From the NCBI GenBank assembly GCA_046293175.1, contig JBKBPM010000001.1:511847-575846 (forward strand): 64,000 nucleotides of DNA. Reading direction: 5' to 3'. Shown one piece after another: positions 16,218-29,130 of this stretch. The number at the start of each line of letters is the position of its first letter. Positions within the stretch are counted from its first letter, which is position 1. The translations under genes and the position numbers were made by a program. The notes under the pieces were generated by a model, which made no database searches, was not told where the DNA came from, and worked only from the letters and a program-made list of their open reading frames with translations. Source of the DNA: Minisyncoccia bacterium. GTDB lineage: Bacteria; Patescibacteriota; Minisyncoccia; Phycocordibacterales; UBA918.

Positions 16218-16721
16218 TTACAATTTTACACTACCGGGACAGAAGCTAAATCGGTAATCAGCACCAGAAGCAGCTTCATCAACATACCCAGGCACACTCA
16301 CGGTGTAATCGAGTCCACACATCTGGGCCTCACTCAGGTTAAGAGTCTTTTTTAGATAGGCTTCGACCGATAGCCGACTTGCTGCGAACGGCTTTTTGAG
16401 AAGTATGATATTAAAATATTTTGTCTCAGCATCAAAAGTAACAATGTACTCGGCTGTTTGGACATCTTCAAAAGTGTTACCTAGAAAATAGTCATTTGTA
16501 TTATATGCAGCTGGAGTGACTTCAGGTAAGGCTAGAAAGTTTTCAACATCAATACTTTTACCGTTTGCTAATGGAAGGGTCACACCGCTATCACTTGGCT
16601 TCGCTACCGAATTATCTGGCCTCGTGATAGAAGCATCCTTTATTAAACTATTATAAAGGATATATACACTGATTGGGATGAAAACAACAAATATAATTGT
16701 AATGACTAAAGAAAATTTCAT
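16218..16721 (-). CDS. hypothetical membrane-anchored/secreted protein (AT-rich gene)
   Basis: 167 aa with an N-terminal TM. Codon usage is more AT-rich than its neighbours. Confidence 0.45.
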   Translation of the reverse strand: MKFSLVITIIFVVFIPISVYILYNSLIKDASITRPDNSVAKPSDSGVTLPLANGKSIDVENFLALPEVTPAAYNTNDYFLGNTFEDVQTAEYIVTFDAETKYFNIILLKKPFAASRLSVEAYLKKTLNLSEAQMCGLDYTVSVPGYVDEAASGADYRFSFCPGSVKL

Positions 16722-17767: not shown

Positions 17768-17850
17768 GCGTCGGTACTCAAGTGGTCAACGAGGGGGGAC
17801 TGTAAATCCCCTGGCATCTGCCTACGAAGGTTCGAATCCCTCCCGGCGCA
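17768..17850 (+). tRNA. tRNA-Tyr(GTA)
   Basis: Acceptor GCGTCGG/CCGGCGC (one G-U pair), anticodon stem GGGGA/TCCCC with loop CTGTAAA, long variable arm GGCATCTGCC, T-loop TTCGAAT, discriminator A. Confidence 0.75.
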
Positions 17851-17895
17851 CACCAAAAAAACAGCTCAGGCAAATGCCTGGGCGATTTTTATTGT

Positions 17896-18094: not shown

Positions 18095-18787
18095 TTAAAC
18101 TATAATCGCAACGTTTAGAATCTTTGGTTCTGGAGCATATACGCCATATTGAAAAGTGGAGCTACTCACCCATTTGGTATCGAATACCGGACCACCGTAC
18201 CCACAGCCGCCTGACCAGAAACTTTCATGATCTGCTATAGAAACTTTTTTGATGGTTGACATTGTTTCTAAGTCAATAATTGAAATTGTCGTTGTGGGAT
18301 TGTAGTAATCAATTATATTTGTGAGATATCTACCCTCTGGAGACAAATCTTCACCATCAGCATAACTAATAGCAAAATCTGTCTTGAAAAAACTTTTTCC
18401 TTTTATATCAAATCCATACACTAAACTTTCTCTGGAACTATATGTTAATGTTTTCACAAAAATTATTCCCGTGAGTTGTGACCTATAGATAGGTTCAATC
18501 ACCGGACCATATGTTGGTTGTACAGAAAATTGATTTTCAAATATAGTTTGAAGCTCTGTATTTGTTGGTAAAGACGTATTTGTTGCCATTGATGACACTT
18601 GACTTGATGTTGCAATAACTGTCTCCACATTTTGAATCATCACTTTATTTTGAACGAATTCATAACCCACATACCCACCCAAAAGTGGTAGGAGTACGAA
18701 CAATGTGAGTACTAAATATTTTGATAGTGGAGTGACTTTTTTCAACGGCGCTATAAGACTCTCCTCTTCATGCTGTTGCGGTTCCAT
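18095..18787 (-). CDS. hypothetical membrane-anchored protein (AT-rich gene)
   Basis: 230 aa with an N-terminal TM (LVLTLFVLLPLLGGYVGY). AT-rich codon usage. Confidence 0.45.
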   Translation of the reverse strand: MEPQQHEEESLIAPLKKVTPLSKYLVLTLFVLLPLLGGYVGYEFVQNKVMIQNVETVIATSSQVSSMATNTSLPTNTELQTIFENQFSVQPTYGPVIEPIYRSQLTGIIFVKTLTYSSRESLVYGFDIKGKSFFKTDFAISYADGEDLSPEGRYLTNIIDYYNPTTTISIIDLETMSTIKKVSIADHESFWSGGCGYGGPVFDTKWVSSSTFQYGVYAPEPKILNVAIIV

Positions 18788-26953: not shown

Positions 26954-27382
26954 ATGACCAAACAACTCAATTACGACAAACACGATCGCGCCACCTCACT
27001 CATCCGTGAGGTAGTAGCAACGTATATCCGCAATGAGGCGAACTCCAATCCCCTCATCACGGTCACAAACGTCTCTGTCTCCCCTGATTACCGCAAGTAC
27101 ACTGTCTTTTTTACCACTATCCCAGACGGCCGCGAAGATGATGCCCTCGTCTTCCTTAAGCGGTCAGCGAGCGACATCCGGAGCTACGTGAAGAAACACA
27201 CAAAACTCAAGATCATCCCCCATCTTGAGTTCGCCGTTGATTACGGCGAACGTCATCGCCAACACATCGACGAGATTGCCGCTGATATTGATGTACAAGA
27301 AGGGGTGACACAGGAAGAAGTAATCGAACGCCTCCTCGATGCTGGAAGCAAGAAGCCAGAGGCAGAAGAAACAGACAACTAA
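26954..27382 (+). CDS. rbfA: ribosome-binding factor A
   Basis: 142 aa. RbfA KH-like pattern (RATSLIREVVATYIRNE...LITVTNVSVSPDYRKYTVFF...IPHLEF). Conserved infB-rbfA synteny. Confidence 0.8.
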   Translation: MTKQLNYDKHDRATSLIREVVATYIRNEANSNPLITVTNVSVSPDYRKYTVFFTTIPDGREDDALVFLKRSASDIRSYVKKHTKLKIIPHLEFAVDYGERHRQHIDEIAADIDVQEGVTQEEVIERLLDAGSKKPEAEETDN

Positions 27383-27422
27383 AACAAAACCACCAGCCAT
27401 TAGGCTGGTGGTTTTGTTTTTT

Positions 27423-27515
27423 GAAACCAAAGGCGGGATTCGAACTTTACAAGTTCAGTACATGTTGTCGCTCTTTTACAGAAAAGAGCTGGCAACCTTT
27501 TCGAATCCCTTGTCA
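27423..27515 (-). repeat. tRNA-associated structured repeat, copy E (downstream of tRNA-Cys), ending in a diverged copy of the tRNA-Cys 3' end
   Basis: Minus-strand read: aaggttgccagctcttttctgtaaaagagcgacaacatgtactgaacttgtaaagttcgaatcccgcctttggtttca. The plus-strand tgaaaccaaaggcgggattcgaac matches tgagaccgaggcgggattcgaac (the tRNA-Cys 3' end) at 21/24 positions. Confidence 0.6.
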
Positions 27516-27550
27516 AAATAAAACACCCTCAATCGGGTACTTTATTATTG

Positions 27551-27624
27551 AGACCGAGGCGGGATTCGAACCCGCGCGTGGCGGTTTTGCAAACCGCAGT
27601 GTTAACCGCTTCACCACTCGGTCT
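27551..27624 (-). tRNA. tRNA-Cys(GCA)
   Basis: Acceptor GACCGAG/CTCGGTC, anticodon stem GCGGT/ACCGC with loop TTGCAAA, T-arm GCGGG-TTCGAAT-CCCGC, discriminator U. Confidence 0.8.
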
Positions 27625-27716
27625 GTATGCCCGCTACTATAGCATTATATAGACTGTTTACAAACTAAGATAAATTGGTAAACGTGGATAGTATAATATC
27701 ACTATAAGTTTACCAT

Positions 27717-28211
27717 ATGGCAAAAAAACGTACCTGGACAGAAGCCCAATTAAGACAAGCAGTACATGATTCAAAGAGTATTCGCCAAGTTCTCATTATT
27801 TTGGGACTTATCCCTGCTGGAGGCAACTACCAACACGTTGGACAAACTATAAAAAAGCTTGGGATAGATGACTCACATTTTACAGGTATGGGTTGGCGAA
27901 GTGGACGAACTTTTGATTTTGTCCCTCAGCGAACACTTGAATCTATTCTTCAAAAAAACTCCGATTTTCAAAGTTTCAAATTAAAAAAACGGTTATTTCG
28001 CGAAGGTTTAAAACAACCAAAGTGCGAAATGTGCGGCTGGGCAGAAATATCAAATGATGGTAGGATTCCAGTCGAGCTCGACCACATCAATGGAGATCAC
28101 CGTGATAATCGGCTAGAGAATCTGAGAATTCTATGCCCCAATTGTCACAGTCTTCAACCAACACATCGGGGTCGAAATCAAAAGAAACCGCCGGGGTGGC
28201 GAAATCGGTAG
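27717..28211 (+). CDS. HNH endonuclease
   Basis: 164 aa. HNH motif CEMCGWAE...ELDHINGDHRDNRLENLRILCPNCH. The gene is AT-rich and its last 22 nt overlap the 5' end of tRNA-Leu(TAA). Confidence 0.75.
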   Translation: MAKKRTWTEAQLRQAVHDSKSIRQVLIILGLIPAGGNYQHVGQTIKKLGIDDSHFTGMGWRSGRTFDFVPQRTLESILQKNSDFQSFKLKKRLFREGLKQPKCEMCGWAEISNDGRIPVELDHINGDHRDNRLENLRILCPNCHSLQPTHRGRNQKKPPGWRNR

Positions 28212-28276
28212 ACGCGCAACACTTAAAATGTTGTGAGCGAAAGCTCTTATGGGTTCAAGTCCCATTCCCGGCACCA
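28190..28276 (+). tRNA. tRNA-Leu(TAA), CCA encoded
   Basis: Acceptor GCCGGGG/TCCCGGC, anticodon stem CAACA/TGTTG with loop CTTAAAA, long variable arm, T-arm ATGGG-TTCAAGT-CCCAT, A73, CCA. Confidence 0.85.
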
Positions 28277-28278
28277 TA

Positions 28279-28316
28279 ACAAAACACTCCATGGATATGG
28301 AGTGTTTTGTTATTTT
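28279..28316. terminator. perfect hairpin terminator (copy 1 of a duplicated terminator)
   Basis: aacaaaacactccat-ggat-atggagtgttttgtt followed by attttct. The arms are identical to the hairpin at 29094-29126. Confidence 0.7.
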
Positions 28317-28331
28317 CTAAACCAATCATTG

Positions 28332-28413
28332 TGCCCAGGAGAGGACTTGAACCTCCATGAGTCACCTCGCTTGCTCCTAAGGCAAGTGCGTCTACCAATT
28401 TCGCCACCTGGGC
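28332..28413 (-). tRNA. tRNA-Leu(TAG)
   Basis: Acceptor GCCCAGG/CCTGGGC, anticodon stem CTTGC/GCAAG with loop CTTAGGA, long variable arm, T-loop TTCAAGT, A73. Confidence 0.85.
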
Positions 28414-28547: not shown

Positions 28548-28620
28548 GCCTTCTTAGCTCAGTTGGTAGAGCAGCTCCCTCTTAAGGAGACGGTCCAAGG
28601 TTCGAGCCCTTGAGGAGGCA
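28548..28620 (+). tRNA. tRNA-Lys(CTT)
   Basis: Acceptor GCCTTCT/AGGAGGC, D-arm GCTCAGTTGGTAGAGC, anticodon loop CTCTTAA, T-arm CAAGG-TTCGAGC-CCTTG, A73. Confidence 0.8.
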
Positions 28621-28678
28621 CTAAGATATAACAAAAGCACATGACAACATTGTTATGTGCTTTTGTTATAATTCCCCT

Positions 28679-29095
28679 ATGACCACCCCAGCATTCGCCT
28701 TCGGTGACGGGATCACTCCTCCTACCCCTTTTGTCCTCCTCGAACAGATTATTGAAGATCGCGGCAGTCGCTATAGCGTGAGCTACGGCCACGTACAGAG
28801 TCGCGAGGATATCAAAACCTTTCTCAAAACCCTCAAAAAAGACAAGGCCTATATGCGCGCCGATCACAACAGCTTCGCTGCTCGTATCGAACACGAAGGA
28901 GTGATCTATGAAACCAAAAACGATGATGGTGAGACTGGCGCCGGGATGGTGATTCTCCGCATGCTCCAAAAACACGATGTCAGATGCGGGGTCGTCTGTG
29001 TAACCCGCTGGTTCGGTGGCATCAAGCTGATGGGTGACCGGTTTAAACATATCCAAGACGCCACCATCATCGCTATCAACCACATGCAGTCATAA
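28679..29095 (+). CDS. YigZ/IMPACT-family (UPF0029) N-domain protein
   Basis: 138 aa from the internal Met. GSRYSVSYGHV...DDGETGAGMVILRML...VVCVTRWFGGIKLMG matches the IMPACT/YigZ core. Confidence 0.7.
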   Translation: MTTPAFAFGDGITPPTPFVLLEQIIEDRGSRYSVSYGHVQSREDIKTFLKTLKKDKAYMRADHNSFAARIEHEGVIYETKNDDGETGAGMVILRMLQKHDVRCGVVCVTRWFGGIKLMGDRFKHIQDATIIAINHMQS

Positions 29096-29130
29096 CAAAA
29101 CACTCCATCTAGATGGAGTGTTTTGTATTT
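29094..29130. terminator. perfect hairpin terminator (copy 2 of the duplicated terminator)
   Basis: aacaaaacactccat-ctag-atggagtgttttgt followed by attttgtt. Shared by yigZ-like (+) and trhO (-). Confidence 0.7.

Follow-up and report, generated by a model that had tools for sequence, protein, structure and literature searches.

A family of HNH endonuclease genes tied to tRNA-Leu genes includes a probable homing endonuclease in a Patescibacteria chromosome

Introduction

Why does an endonuclease gene in a bacterial chromosome end inside a tRNA gene? The question is raised by a 64,000-nt stretch of the genome of a Minisyncoccia bacterium (contig JBKBPM010000001.1, positions 511,847 to 575,846 of the forward strand), the whole of which we call the window, and in which an HNH endonuclease open reading frame (ORF) runs into the gene for tRNA-Leu(UAA). 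A preliminary description, made from the letters of the window, had read the ORF as a selfish homing-type endonuclease gene lodged beside tRNA genes. Free-standing homing endonucleases are well studied in phages; to our knowledge, very few are on record as active residents of bacterial chromosomes. The bacteria of the candidate phyla radiation (CPR, or Patescibacteria), in which the window lies, are ultrasmall.

Here we report a comparative analysis of this locus. The family to which the HNH gene belongs is tied to tRNA-Leu genes in CPR bacteria, in high-GC bacteria and in phages. Judging from these sequence comparisons, the window gene is probably a functional, free-standing HNH homing endonuclease gene that sits between tRNA-Cys and tRNA-Leu(UAA) and has the tRNA-Leu locus as its target. 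The reading of the preliminary description is thus supported comparatively, by the linkage to tRNA and by patchy presence at a fixed site.

Results

The HNH ORF ends within an uninterrupted tRNA-Leu(UAA) gene

The HNH ORF (27717–28211, + strand) starts with ATG and encodes 164 aa. The tRNA-Leu(UAA) gene (28190–28276, + strand) is 87 nt long and uninterrupted, has its CCA end encoded, and is called by ARAGORN and by the Rfam tRNA model (56.9 bits). The two genes overlap by 22 nt (28190–28211, + strand), with the last seven codons of the ORF and its TAG stop codon corresponding to tRNA-Leu positions 1–22. Specifically, the 3′ end of the ORF reads ccg ccg ggg tgg cga aat cgg tag, and both the coordinates and these closing codons agree exactly with the overlap that had been described.

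No group I intron was found in tRNA-Leu(UAA), which forms a contiguous cloverleaf in ARAGORN and matches no Rfam intron model. The ORF lies outside any intron or intein, between host genes and at the 5′ flank of tRNA-Leu, and in this position it is free-standing. An intron-encoded tRNA homing endonuclease is ruled out, because the ORF is not within a group I intron and the tRNA is uninterrupted.

The juxtaposition with tRNA-Leu recurs across the family

A protein search returned more than 7990 HNH homologs, which fall into two length classes, a short form of about 160–175 aa and a long form of about 270–287 aa with three copies of the N-terminal module. In the short forms, the C-terminal tails that follow a conserved CPNCHSLQPTHRGxNQK are the 5′ sequence of tRNA-Leu read in all three frames, the variants being PPGWRNR followed by a stop, RGGEIGRRATLKML followed by a stop, GGGMVDAQHLKCCE and ARVAE. 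About 20 homologs share the PPGWRNR tail and stop of the window ORF. For annotation, this means that gene callers extend HNH ORFs into the tRNA in three frames and give them spurious C-terminal tails.

A metagenome scan yielded 80 homolog loci (59–97% identity), and tRNA-Leu(taa) lies directly downstream on the same strand in 76 of them. The remaining four either reach a contig end or have no downstream tRNA called by ARAGORN (L097, with a tandem unit, and L130). The stop codon falls inside the tRNA in about 49 of the metagenomic loci and no more than 15 nt upstream of it in most others. The same juxtaposition is found at every full-length chromosomal homolog locus examined that has downstream sequence. 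Because it recurs in nearly all of the metagenomic loci and in all of these chromosomal ones, the juxtaposition of ORF and tRNA is far beyond chance.

The linkage extends to the long forms and to phages. At five of five long-form loci, which are in genomes of 66–75% GC, tRNA-Leu(taa) lies 0–3 nt from the stop codon, in convergent or co-directional orientation. All five annotated phage homologs (36–54% identity) lie in or at tRNA clusters; the ORF of phage GodonK overlaps tRNA-Glu by 10 nt, and that of phage mistaenkt stops 1 nt before tRNA-Leu. Among 34 viral contigs, the nearest tRNA is tRNA-Leu, of any anticodon, in 18 of about 24 loci with a nearby tRNA. The preliminary description had proposed a search for homologs near tRNAs in other genomes, and such homologs are found there in the metagenomic, long-form and annotated phage loci and in most viral contigs. 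That the link is specifically to tRNA-Leu, is family-wide and comes with a differing anticodon stem goes beyond what the sequence of the single window showed. Within the literature searched, no account turned up of an HNH family linked to tRNA-Leu(UAA) in the chromosomes of CPR or other bacteria.

As a side observation, the long-form gene in a 71% GC genome adjoins a 76-nt tRNA with a short variable arm and the anticodon UAA (L092:3849-3924, − strand), which ARAGORN called tRNA-Leu(taa) and which is atypical for this class-II isotype.

The gene is present in some relatives and absent from others at one fixed site

Using the upstream IF2 gene, we retrieved 80 species-representative loci from relatives, 67 of which could be assessed for the interval between tRNA-Cys and tRNA-Leu. 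All 80 are from Patescibacteria/Paceibacteria, the best match being a Candidatus Kaiserbacteria metagenome-assembled genome with 79% identity. The order common to these relatives is infB-rbfA-tRNA-Cys-tRNA-Leu(taa)-tRNA-Lys(ctt)-tRNA-Leu(tag). An intact HNH homolog is present in six of the 67 loci (L003, L031, L038, L047, L066 and L079), in each case exactly between tRNA-Cys and tRNA-Leu(taa), abutting the latter and on the same strand as it. Decayed copies are present in two more, of which L060 lacks the N-terminal segment of about 50 residues and L059 retains the last 22 codons beside the tRNA. Most of the closest relatives lack the gene, among them the closest one found, L001, where the spacer from tRNA-Cys to tRNA-Leu is 29 nt, as well as L002, L004–L008 and L010. 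Further genomes hold close protein homologs (P0003, P0009 and P0011) at the equivalent syntenic site.

The locus is polymorphic for presence and absence of the gene at a fixed site, with decayed copies, a polymorphism that the preliminary description had proposed to look for. Sporadic presence at one site, together with degenerate copies that fit a cycle of invasion, decay and loss, is the pattern of a homing gene. The same description had held that conservation of the gene at this position in all relatives, with native codon usage, would refute the reading as a selfish gene; the gene is instead patchy, and it is AT-richer than its host in the window and in most of the HNH-bearing relatives compared.

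Specifically, the GC content of the HNH ORF is 0.42, against a mean of 0.492 ± 0.042 for 53 ORFs of the window, among which it is the fourth lowest, and its GC at third codon positions is 0.32, against 0.50 ± 0.08 for the window ORFs. The gene had been described as much more AT-rich than its surroundings; the direction is right, and the difference is real but moderate, which makes "much" somewhat overstated. Across the 11 HNH-bearing loci compared, L038 is the only one where the HNH gene is not AT-richer than the IF2 gene of its host; in the other 10 it is, sometimes by a wide margin (GC 0.42 against 0.575 and 0.39 against 0.57). The composition of the HNH gene is AT-rich and looks foreign.

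The linked tRNA differs at two adjacent pairs of the anticodon stem

A set of 81 distinct tRNA-Leu(taa) sequences, all HNH-linked, was compared with a set of 58 distinct sequences that are unlinked. Strong discrimination between the two sets is confined to two neighbouring pairs of the anticodon stem, 30:40 and 29:41. The pair 30:40 is C:G in 68 of the 81 linked sequences versus 8 of the 58 unlinked ones, while the pair 29:41 is A:T in 58 of the linked versus 18 of the unlinked sequences. The anticodon stem-loop of the window tRNA, CAACA-CTTAAAA-TGTTG (28217–28233, + strand), has C30:G40 and A29:T41, the pairs typical of HNH-linked alleles. The contrast at position 30 recurs in five to six independent clades, each with C30 in the HNH bearer and G30 in its nearest HNH-less relatives (IF2 72–82% identical).

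Co-conversion of the whole tRNA as the sole cause of this association is disfavoured, since hitchhiking of the whole tRNA would mark many positions, not two pairs. The two-pair difference beside the anticodon loop is a putative recognition site, of which the linked allele would be the immune form.

The protein is a predicted two-domain HNH nuclease under purifying selection

The HNH protein is composed of an HTH (helix-turn-helix)-like, presumably DNA-binding module and a zinc HNH nuclease domain, their functions being predicted from sequence and model. In the AlphaFold model (pLDDT 84.5), an N-terminal HTH-like module of three helices (residues 8–48) is connected by a linker to a C-terminal zinc beta-beta-alpha-Me nuclease domain (about residues 100–150), within which strands 120–123 and 136–139 and helix 141–145 have pLDDT values above 90. 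The zinc ligands are predicted to be the CxxC pairs 103/106 and 140/143, and the catalytic residues to be DH 122–123, N135 and H144. Consistent with these assignments, C103, C106, C140, C143, D122, H123, N135 and H144 are among 40 columns that are invariant across 62 homologs.

Both the catalytic motif and the beta-beta-alpha-metal fold place the protein among the HNH, or His-Me finger, nucleases. It matches Pfam PF01844 (HNH) at 22.8 bits, with a cutoff of 21.4, and PF13392 (HNH_3) at 24.4 bits, just below the cutoff of 24.8, while residues 1–157 align to positions 2–157 of the 245-position profile of PHROG 10822, "HNH endonuclease" (E 2.7e-46). The best PDB matches found by Foldseek are the McrA HNH domains 6ghc and 5zmm (Foldseek probability 0.97), the N-terminus giving weak HTH matches; a PDB sequence search with the protein gave no meaningful match. 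The dN/dS of the HNH gene against L096, L098 and L099 is 0.04–0.09, showing strong purifying selection.

Other assignments of the protein were considered and rejected. A SegB-type GIY-YIG enzyme is ruled out, as the protein is an HNH protein with no GIY-YIG match in Pfam or PHROGs. In NCBIfam, only sub-threshold matches of the HNH domain were obtained, to ZorE (23 bits, cutoff 600) and to IscB (16.6 bits, cutoff 175). IscB and other OMEGA RNA-guided nucleases combine RuvC and HNH domains in about 400–500 aa and have an adjacent omega RNA; with 164 aa, no RuvC domain and a score below the cutoff, the window protein is not one of them. Assignment to a defence system is rejected on the sub-threshold similarity to Zorya ZorE.

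Sequence comparisons bear signs of possible movement

Among ten HNH-bearing loci, the HNH proteins are more similar to each other than the IF2 proteins of the same hosts in 39 of 45 pairs. By IF2, the window is closer to L003 (74%) than to L090 (67%); by HNH, it is closer to L090 (78%) than to L003 (66%). Between the window and L096, the relative with the most similar HNH gene, the synonymous divergence (dS) increases from 0.31 at the HNH gene to 0.80 at the UPF0029 gene, which lies 0.45 kb away, and to 2.04 at the more distant rhodanese gene, a gradient that suggests a recent gene-conversion tract centred on the HNH gene in this one pair.

In L096, L098 and L101, tRNA-Leu positions 1–22, including the TAG, occur as a separate 22-nt copy at the end of the ORF; this copy is followed by a spacer of about 96 nt with two hairpins and a TATAAT, and then by the complete tRNA. 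The 118-nt unit made up of the 22-nt tRNA fragment and the following 96 nt lies at L096:843-960 and is in tandem in L097 (L097:1293-1613). Because L096, L098 and L101 hold an attached 22-nt copy, the ORF appears to carry the tRNA 5′ end along.

Two relatives hold additional copies of tRNA-Leu(taa). Upstream of tRNA-Cys in L096 there is a second tRNA-Leu(taa)-like gene (L096:50-134, − strand), of G30 type and with an 8-nt anticodon loop, possibly a resident copy that the HNH-linked allele has displaced and that is now decaying. In L027, the whole rbfA-tRNACys-tRNALeu(taa)-tRNALys/tRNALeu(tag) block is present as an inverted duplication (L027:7469-8783), whose tRNA-Leu(taa) copies differ in the anticodon stem (GAGGA versus AGACA).

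The HNH gene and the tRNA are likely transcribed together

An alignment of the window with L086, L090, L087 and L003 reveals a promoter-like motif, GTGGATAGTATAAT (27684–27697, + strand), with TATAAT at 27692–27697. In the form GTGGAyAGTATAAT, the motif lies about 20 nt before the ATG and is retained ahead of the HNH gene in close relatives, and a promoter function is predicted for it from this conservation. No promoter was seen between the HNH ORF and tRNA-Leu in the window; several HNH-less loci have TATGAT- or TATCAT-type boxes, identified by eye, just upstream of tRNA-Leu. A transcript likely runs from the HNH gene through tRNA-Leu(UAA).

In the window, a perfect 17-bp hairpin (ATAACAAAACACTCCAT/ATGGAGTGTTTTGTTAT, 28276–28313) forms an inverted repeat between the convergent tRNA-Leu(UAA) and tRNA-Leu(UAG) genes and is likely a bidirectional terminator of the HNH-tRNA transcript. 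Perfect long hairpins with the common arms AACAAAAC...GTTTTGTT lie at window positions 27381–27420, 28276–28313, 28627–28670 and 29093–29130, after rbfA, tRNA-Leu(UAA), tRNA-Lys and the UPF0029 gene, respectively. These hairpins are probably the standard bidirectional terminators of this genome, and they may be what the preliminary description had called repeat E.

The neighbourhood of the locus

The neighbours of the HNH gene and its tRNA are tRNA-Cys(GCA) upstream (27550–27623, − strand; Rfam 62 bits) and tRNA-Leu(tag) (28331–28413, − strand) and tRNA-Lys(ctt) (28548–28621, + strand) downstream. ARAGORN and Rfam agree on all three, in keeping with the cluster as first described. In most homolog loci the gene next upstream of the HNH gene is tRNA-Cys, on one strand or the other, and its conserved sequence could be the left homology arm of a cassette.

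In the window, tRNA-Cys is inverted relative to most relatives. A 15-nt exact copy of its 3′ end (27557–27571) is present as a direct repeat at 27431–27445 (− strand), 126 nt beyond tRNA-Cys and in the same orientation, and such a copy is present also in L097 and L098. The segment between the copies has an unusually strong fold (z −3.8). In the segment 27421–27549, a permissive Rfam scan and folding revealed no tRNA and no member of a known RNA family; the 15-nt copy is all that was recognised there. The copy has no established tie to the HNH gene and may be the scar of a past rearrangement at the locus.

Elsewhere in the window, an 89-nt tRNA with a long variable arm, that is, of class-II shape, and the anticodon TAT (54306–54394, + strand) was called tRNA-Ile(tat). 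Genes of about 90 nt called tRNA-Ile(tat) also lie near phage HNH homologs (L082:1635-1724, L193, L194 and L205); the combination of a class-II tRNA body with a UAU anticodon is unusual. Two AT-rich ORFs that have no Pfam match, at 16218–16721 (− strand, GC 0.387) and 18095–18787 (− strand, GC 0.362), are possibly other foreign genes near a tRNA, the latter adjoining tRNA-Tyr (17768–17851).

Discussion

A homing model and the points against it

We propose that the enzyme would cut or nick HNH-less alleles in or near the tRNA-Leu(UAA) gene, and that recombinational repair from an HNH-bearing copy would insert the gene along with the tRNA sequence next to it, using the flanking conserved tRNA genes as homology arms. 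As target, the DNA of the anticodon stem-loop in the common G30:C40 allele is the best candidate; the linked C30:G40 variant of the anticodon stem would make the carrier immune. The HNH gene would probably be transcribed from its own promoter into tRNA-Leu(UAA), and RNase P, by cleaving at the tRNA 5′ end, would strip the ORF of its final 22 nt, stop codon included, and so throttle expression of the nuclease. Taken jointly, recognition and immunity at the anticodon stem and the RNase P brake are tentative proposals, their chances ranging from rather poor to about even.

Several observations weigh against the homing model. HNH identity tracks host IF2 identity (Spearman 0.64), and because of this correlation inheritance may be largely vertical, the gene having been lost repeatedly rather than having invaded often. 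The dS gradient comes from one metagenomic contig pair, the other pairs being near saturation. The association with C30 has exceptions in both directions, as L079 has an HNH gene with G30 and L001 has C30 with no HNH gene. Furthermore, the long forms are linked to G30-type tRNAs, and the C30:G40 rule is therefore specific to the CPR clade. The case for the target site and for a protective role of C30:G40 is purely correlative. A generic sigma-70 promoter and terminator scan called no + strand promoter for the HNH gene, the motif GTGGATAGTATAAT going uncalled because its −35 element is weak. Finally, homing would require donor and recipient alleles to meet in a CPR cell.

Alternative explanations

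One alternative is that the gene is a passive passenger, a phage-derived HNH nuclease gene spread by ordinary recombination between the flanking tRNAs, in which the nuclease is irrelevant to mobility and the protein may do something else or nothing useful. The correlation of HNH with IF2 identity fits such a history, as does the position of the gene, sandwiched between conserved tRNAs able to act as homology arms. However, a dN/dS of 0.04–0.09 on a gene absent from most relatives needs a selective agent, which homing supplies, and both the family-wide tie to tRNA-Leu rather than to any tRNA and the sharply localised difference in the anticodon stem are hard to explain without sequence-specific action; we regard a passive passenger as unlikely. 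Another alternative is a domesticated defence or housekeeping nuclease, kept by the host to cut foreign DNA, such as that of phages with tRNA-Leu, while the host allele is protected by C30:G40. In its favour, purifying selection is strong, CPR phages can carry tRNA-Leu(TAA) (PMC13059738), the linked allele does differ at two stem pairs, and there is the weak similarity to the HNH domain of Zorya ZorE. Yet only some 10% of related species have the gene, of which there are also decayed copies, no partner defence genes accompany it, the ZorE score is far below its cutoff, and the closest non-cellular homologs are phage genes inside tRNA clusters, the classic setting of homing endonucleases. A defence role is accordingly quite improbable.

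That tRNA genes are common integration sites, and that 15 nt of the tRNA-Cys 3′ end recur exactly at a distance of 126 nt, might point to the cargo or remnant of a larger integrative element, such as a prophage or genomic island, with an attachment site in a tRNA. The insert is, however, a single gene of about 0.6 kb that recurs as such in more than 80 loci, no integrase or other foreign gene lies between rbfA and the UPF0029 gene, and the tRNA-Cys repeat does not bracket the HNH gene. We rejected this explanation, which has very little probability left, on the grounds of a single-gene insert with no integrase. The absence of a stop codon of its own and the unconserved C-terminal tail could also suggest a spurious or dead ORF that overlaps the tRNA by accident; with more than 7990 homologs, 40 invariant columns, a confident fold, strong purifying selection and the juxtaposition in 76 of 80 loci, this idea is refuted by the conservation data and its chance is negligible.

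Relation to known systems

The locus is, on the strength of its sequence, best explained as a phage-style homing gene in cellular chromosomes, tied to a single tRNA isotype. By analogy, T4 SegB and the T5 tRNA-region HNH enzymes appear to be its closest mechanistic counterparts. SegB is a free-standing homing endonuclease encoded in a tRNA gene cluster, which drives preferential inheritance of the adjacent tRNA region; segB abuts tRNA-Arg, and 5′ processing of the tRNA severs the last codon from the stop codon, a proposed limit on expression (PMC2330249). The window gene resembles segB as a free-standing endonuclease gene among tRNA genes whose stop codon is predicted to be cut off by tRNA processing. 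SegB, which is tRNA-associated, also drives segmental amplification, and its homologs have no tRNA isotype preference (PMC13096335). Such segmental duplication near tRNAs resembles the 22-nt and 118-nt duplications in L096–L098. The differences are that SegB is a GIY-YIG enzyme whereas the window enzyme is an HNH enzyme, that SegB is phage-borne and acts in co-infection whereas the window gene is in a cellular chromosome, and that the SegB homologs are indifferent to isotype whereas the window family is tied to tRNA-Leu.

The HNH endonucleases of the T5 tRNA region (genes hegA, hegC, hegD and hegE; enzymes F-TflI, II, IV and V) resemble the window enzyme in being encoded within a tRNA cluster, and the F-Tfl enzymes are reported to be site-specific (Akulenko 2004, as cited in PMC2330249). 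In our comparison, T5 hegA is 47% identical to window residues 72–154 (E 5e-22), a similarity that covers the nuclease half only, the N-terminal module being different; hegA is not assigned to any one F-Tfl enzyme. The overlap with the 5′ end of the following tRNA is 14 nt for the hegC ORF and 23 nt for the hegD ORF. Unlike the window gene, the T5 genes are phage genes among many tRNA isotypes. The annotated phage members of PHROG 10822, with which the window protein forms one family over residues 1–157, likewise lie at tRNA clusters; they differ in being 36–54% identical and in lying beside various tRNA-Leu isoacceptors or other tRNAs.

For the HNH genes that lie in tRNA arrays of phages and mycobacteria, descriptive annotation has been published, with no target or linkage analysis (PMC5966550). 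HNH genes have also been reported inside group I introns, in tRNA-Leu(UAA) of Bacteroidota and in tRNA-Asn of Patescibacteria (PMC13011429). These intron-encoded enzymes are comparable in that an HNH gene is associated with a tRNA, including tRNA-Leu(UAA), and the anticodon region is their natural target; they differ from the window case, where no intron splits the tRNA and the HNH gene flanks it on the 5′ side.

Implications

A more speculative extension of the homing model, which we hold to be doubtful at present, is that the HNH gene and tRNA-Leu(UAA) form a two-part "gene-drive" cassette in cellular chromosomes, consisting of a putative cutter and a cleavage-resistant C30:G40 replacement. 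In such a cassette, the nuclease would cut the common G30:C40 tRNA-Leu(UAA) gene at the anticodon stem-loop, and transcription of the replacement tRNA would depend on the HNH promoter, making loss of the selfish gene costly and its invasion self-reinforcing; phage genomes with tRNA-Leu genes could be cut incidentally. If true, no homing system with specificity for a tRNA isotype would have been described before this one across CPR bacteria, high-GC bacteria and phages; the family counts at least several thousand detected homologs.

The comparisons reveal a large family that is tied to one tRNA isotype across very different hosts, with a matching change in the tRNA travelling along. If the proposed mechanism holds, the locus would be a natural cassette of a nuclease and its resistant target, acting on a tRNA gene that the cell needs, and the family would offer compact (164 aa) sequence-specific nucleases, with a recognition site that comparative data allow one to guess. 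The same mechanism would help to explain why tRNA clusters are hotspots of rearrangement in the streamlined genomes of CPR bacteria.

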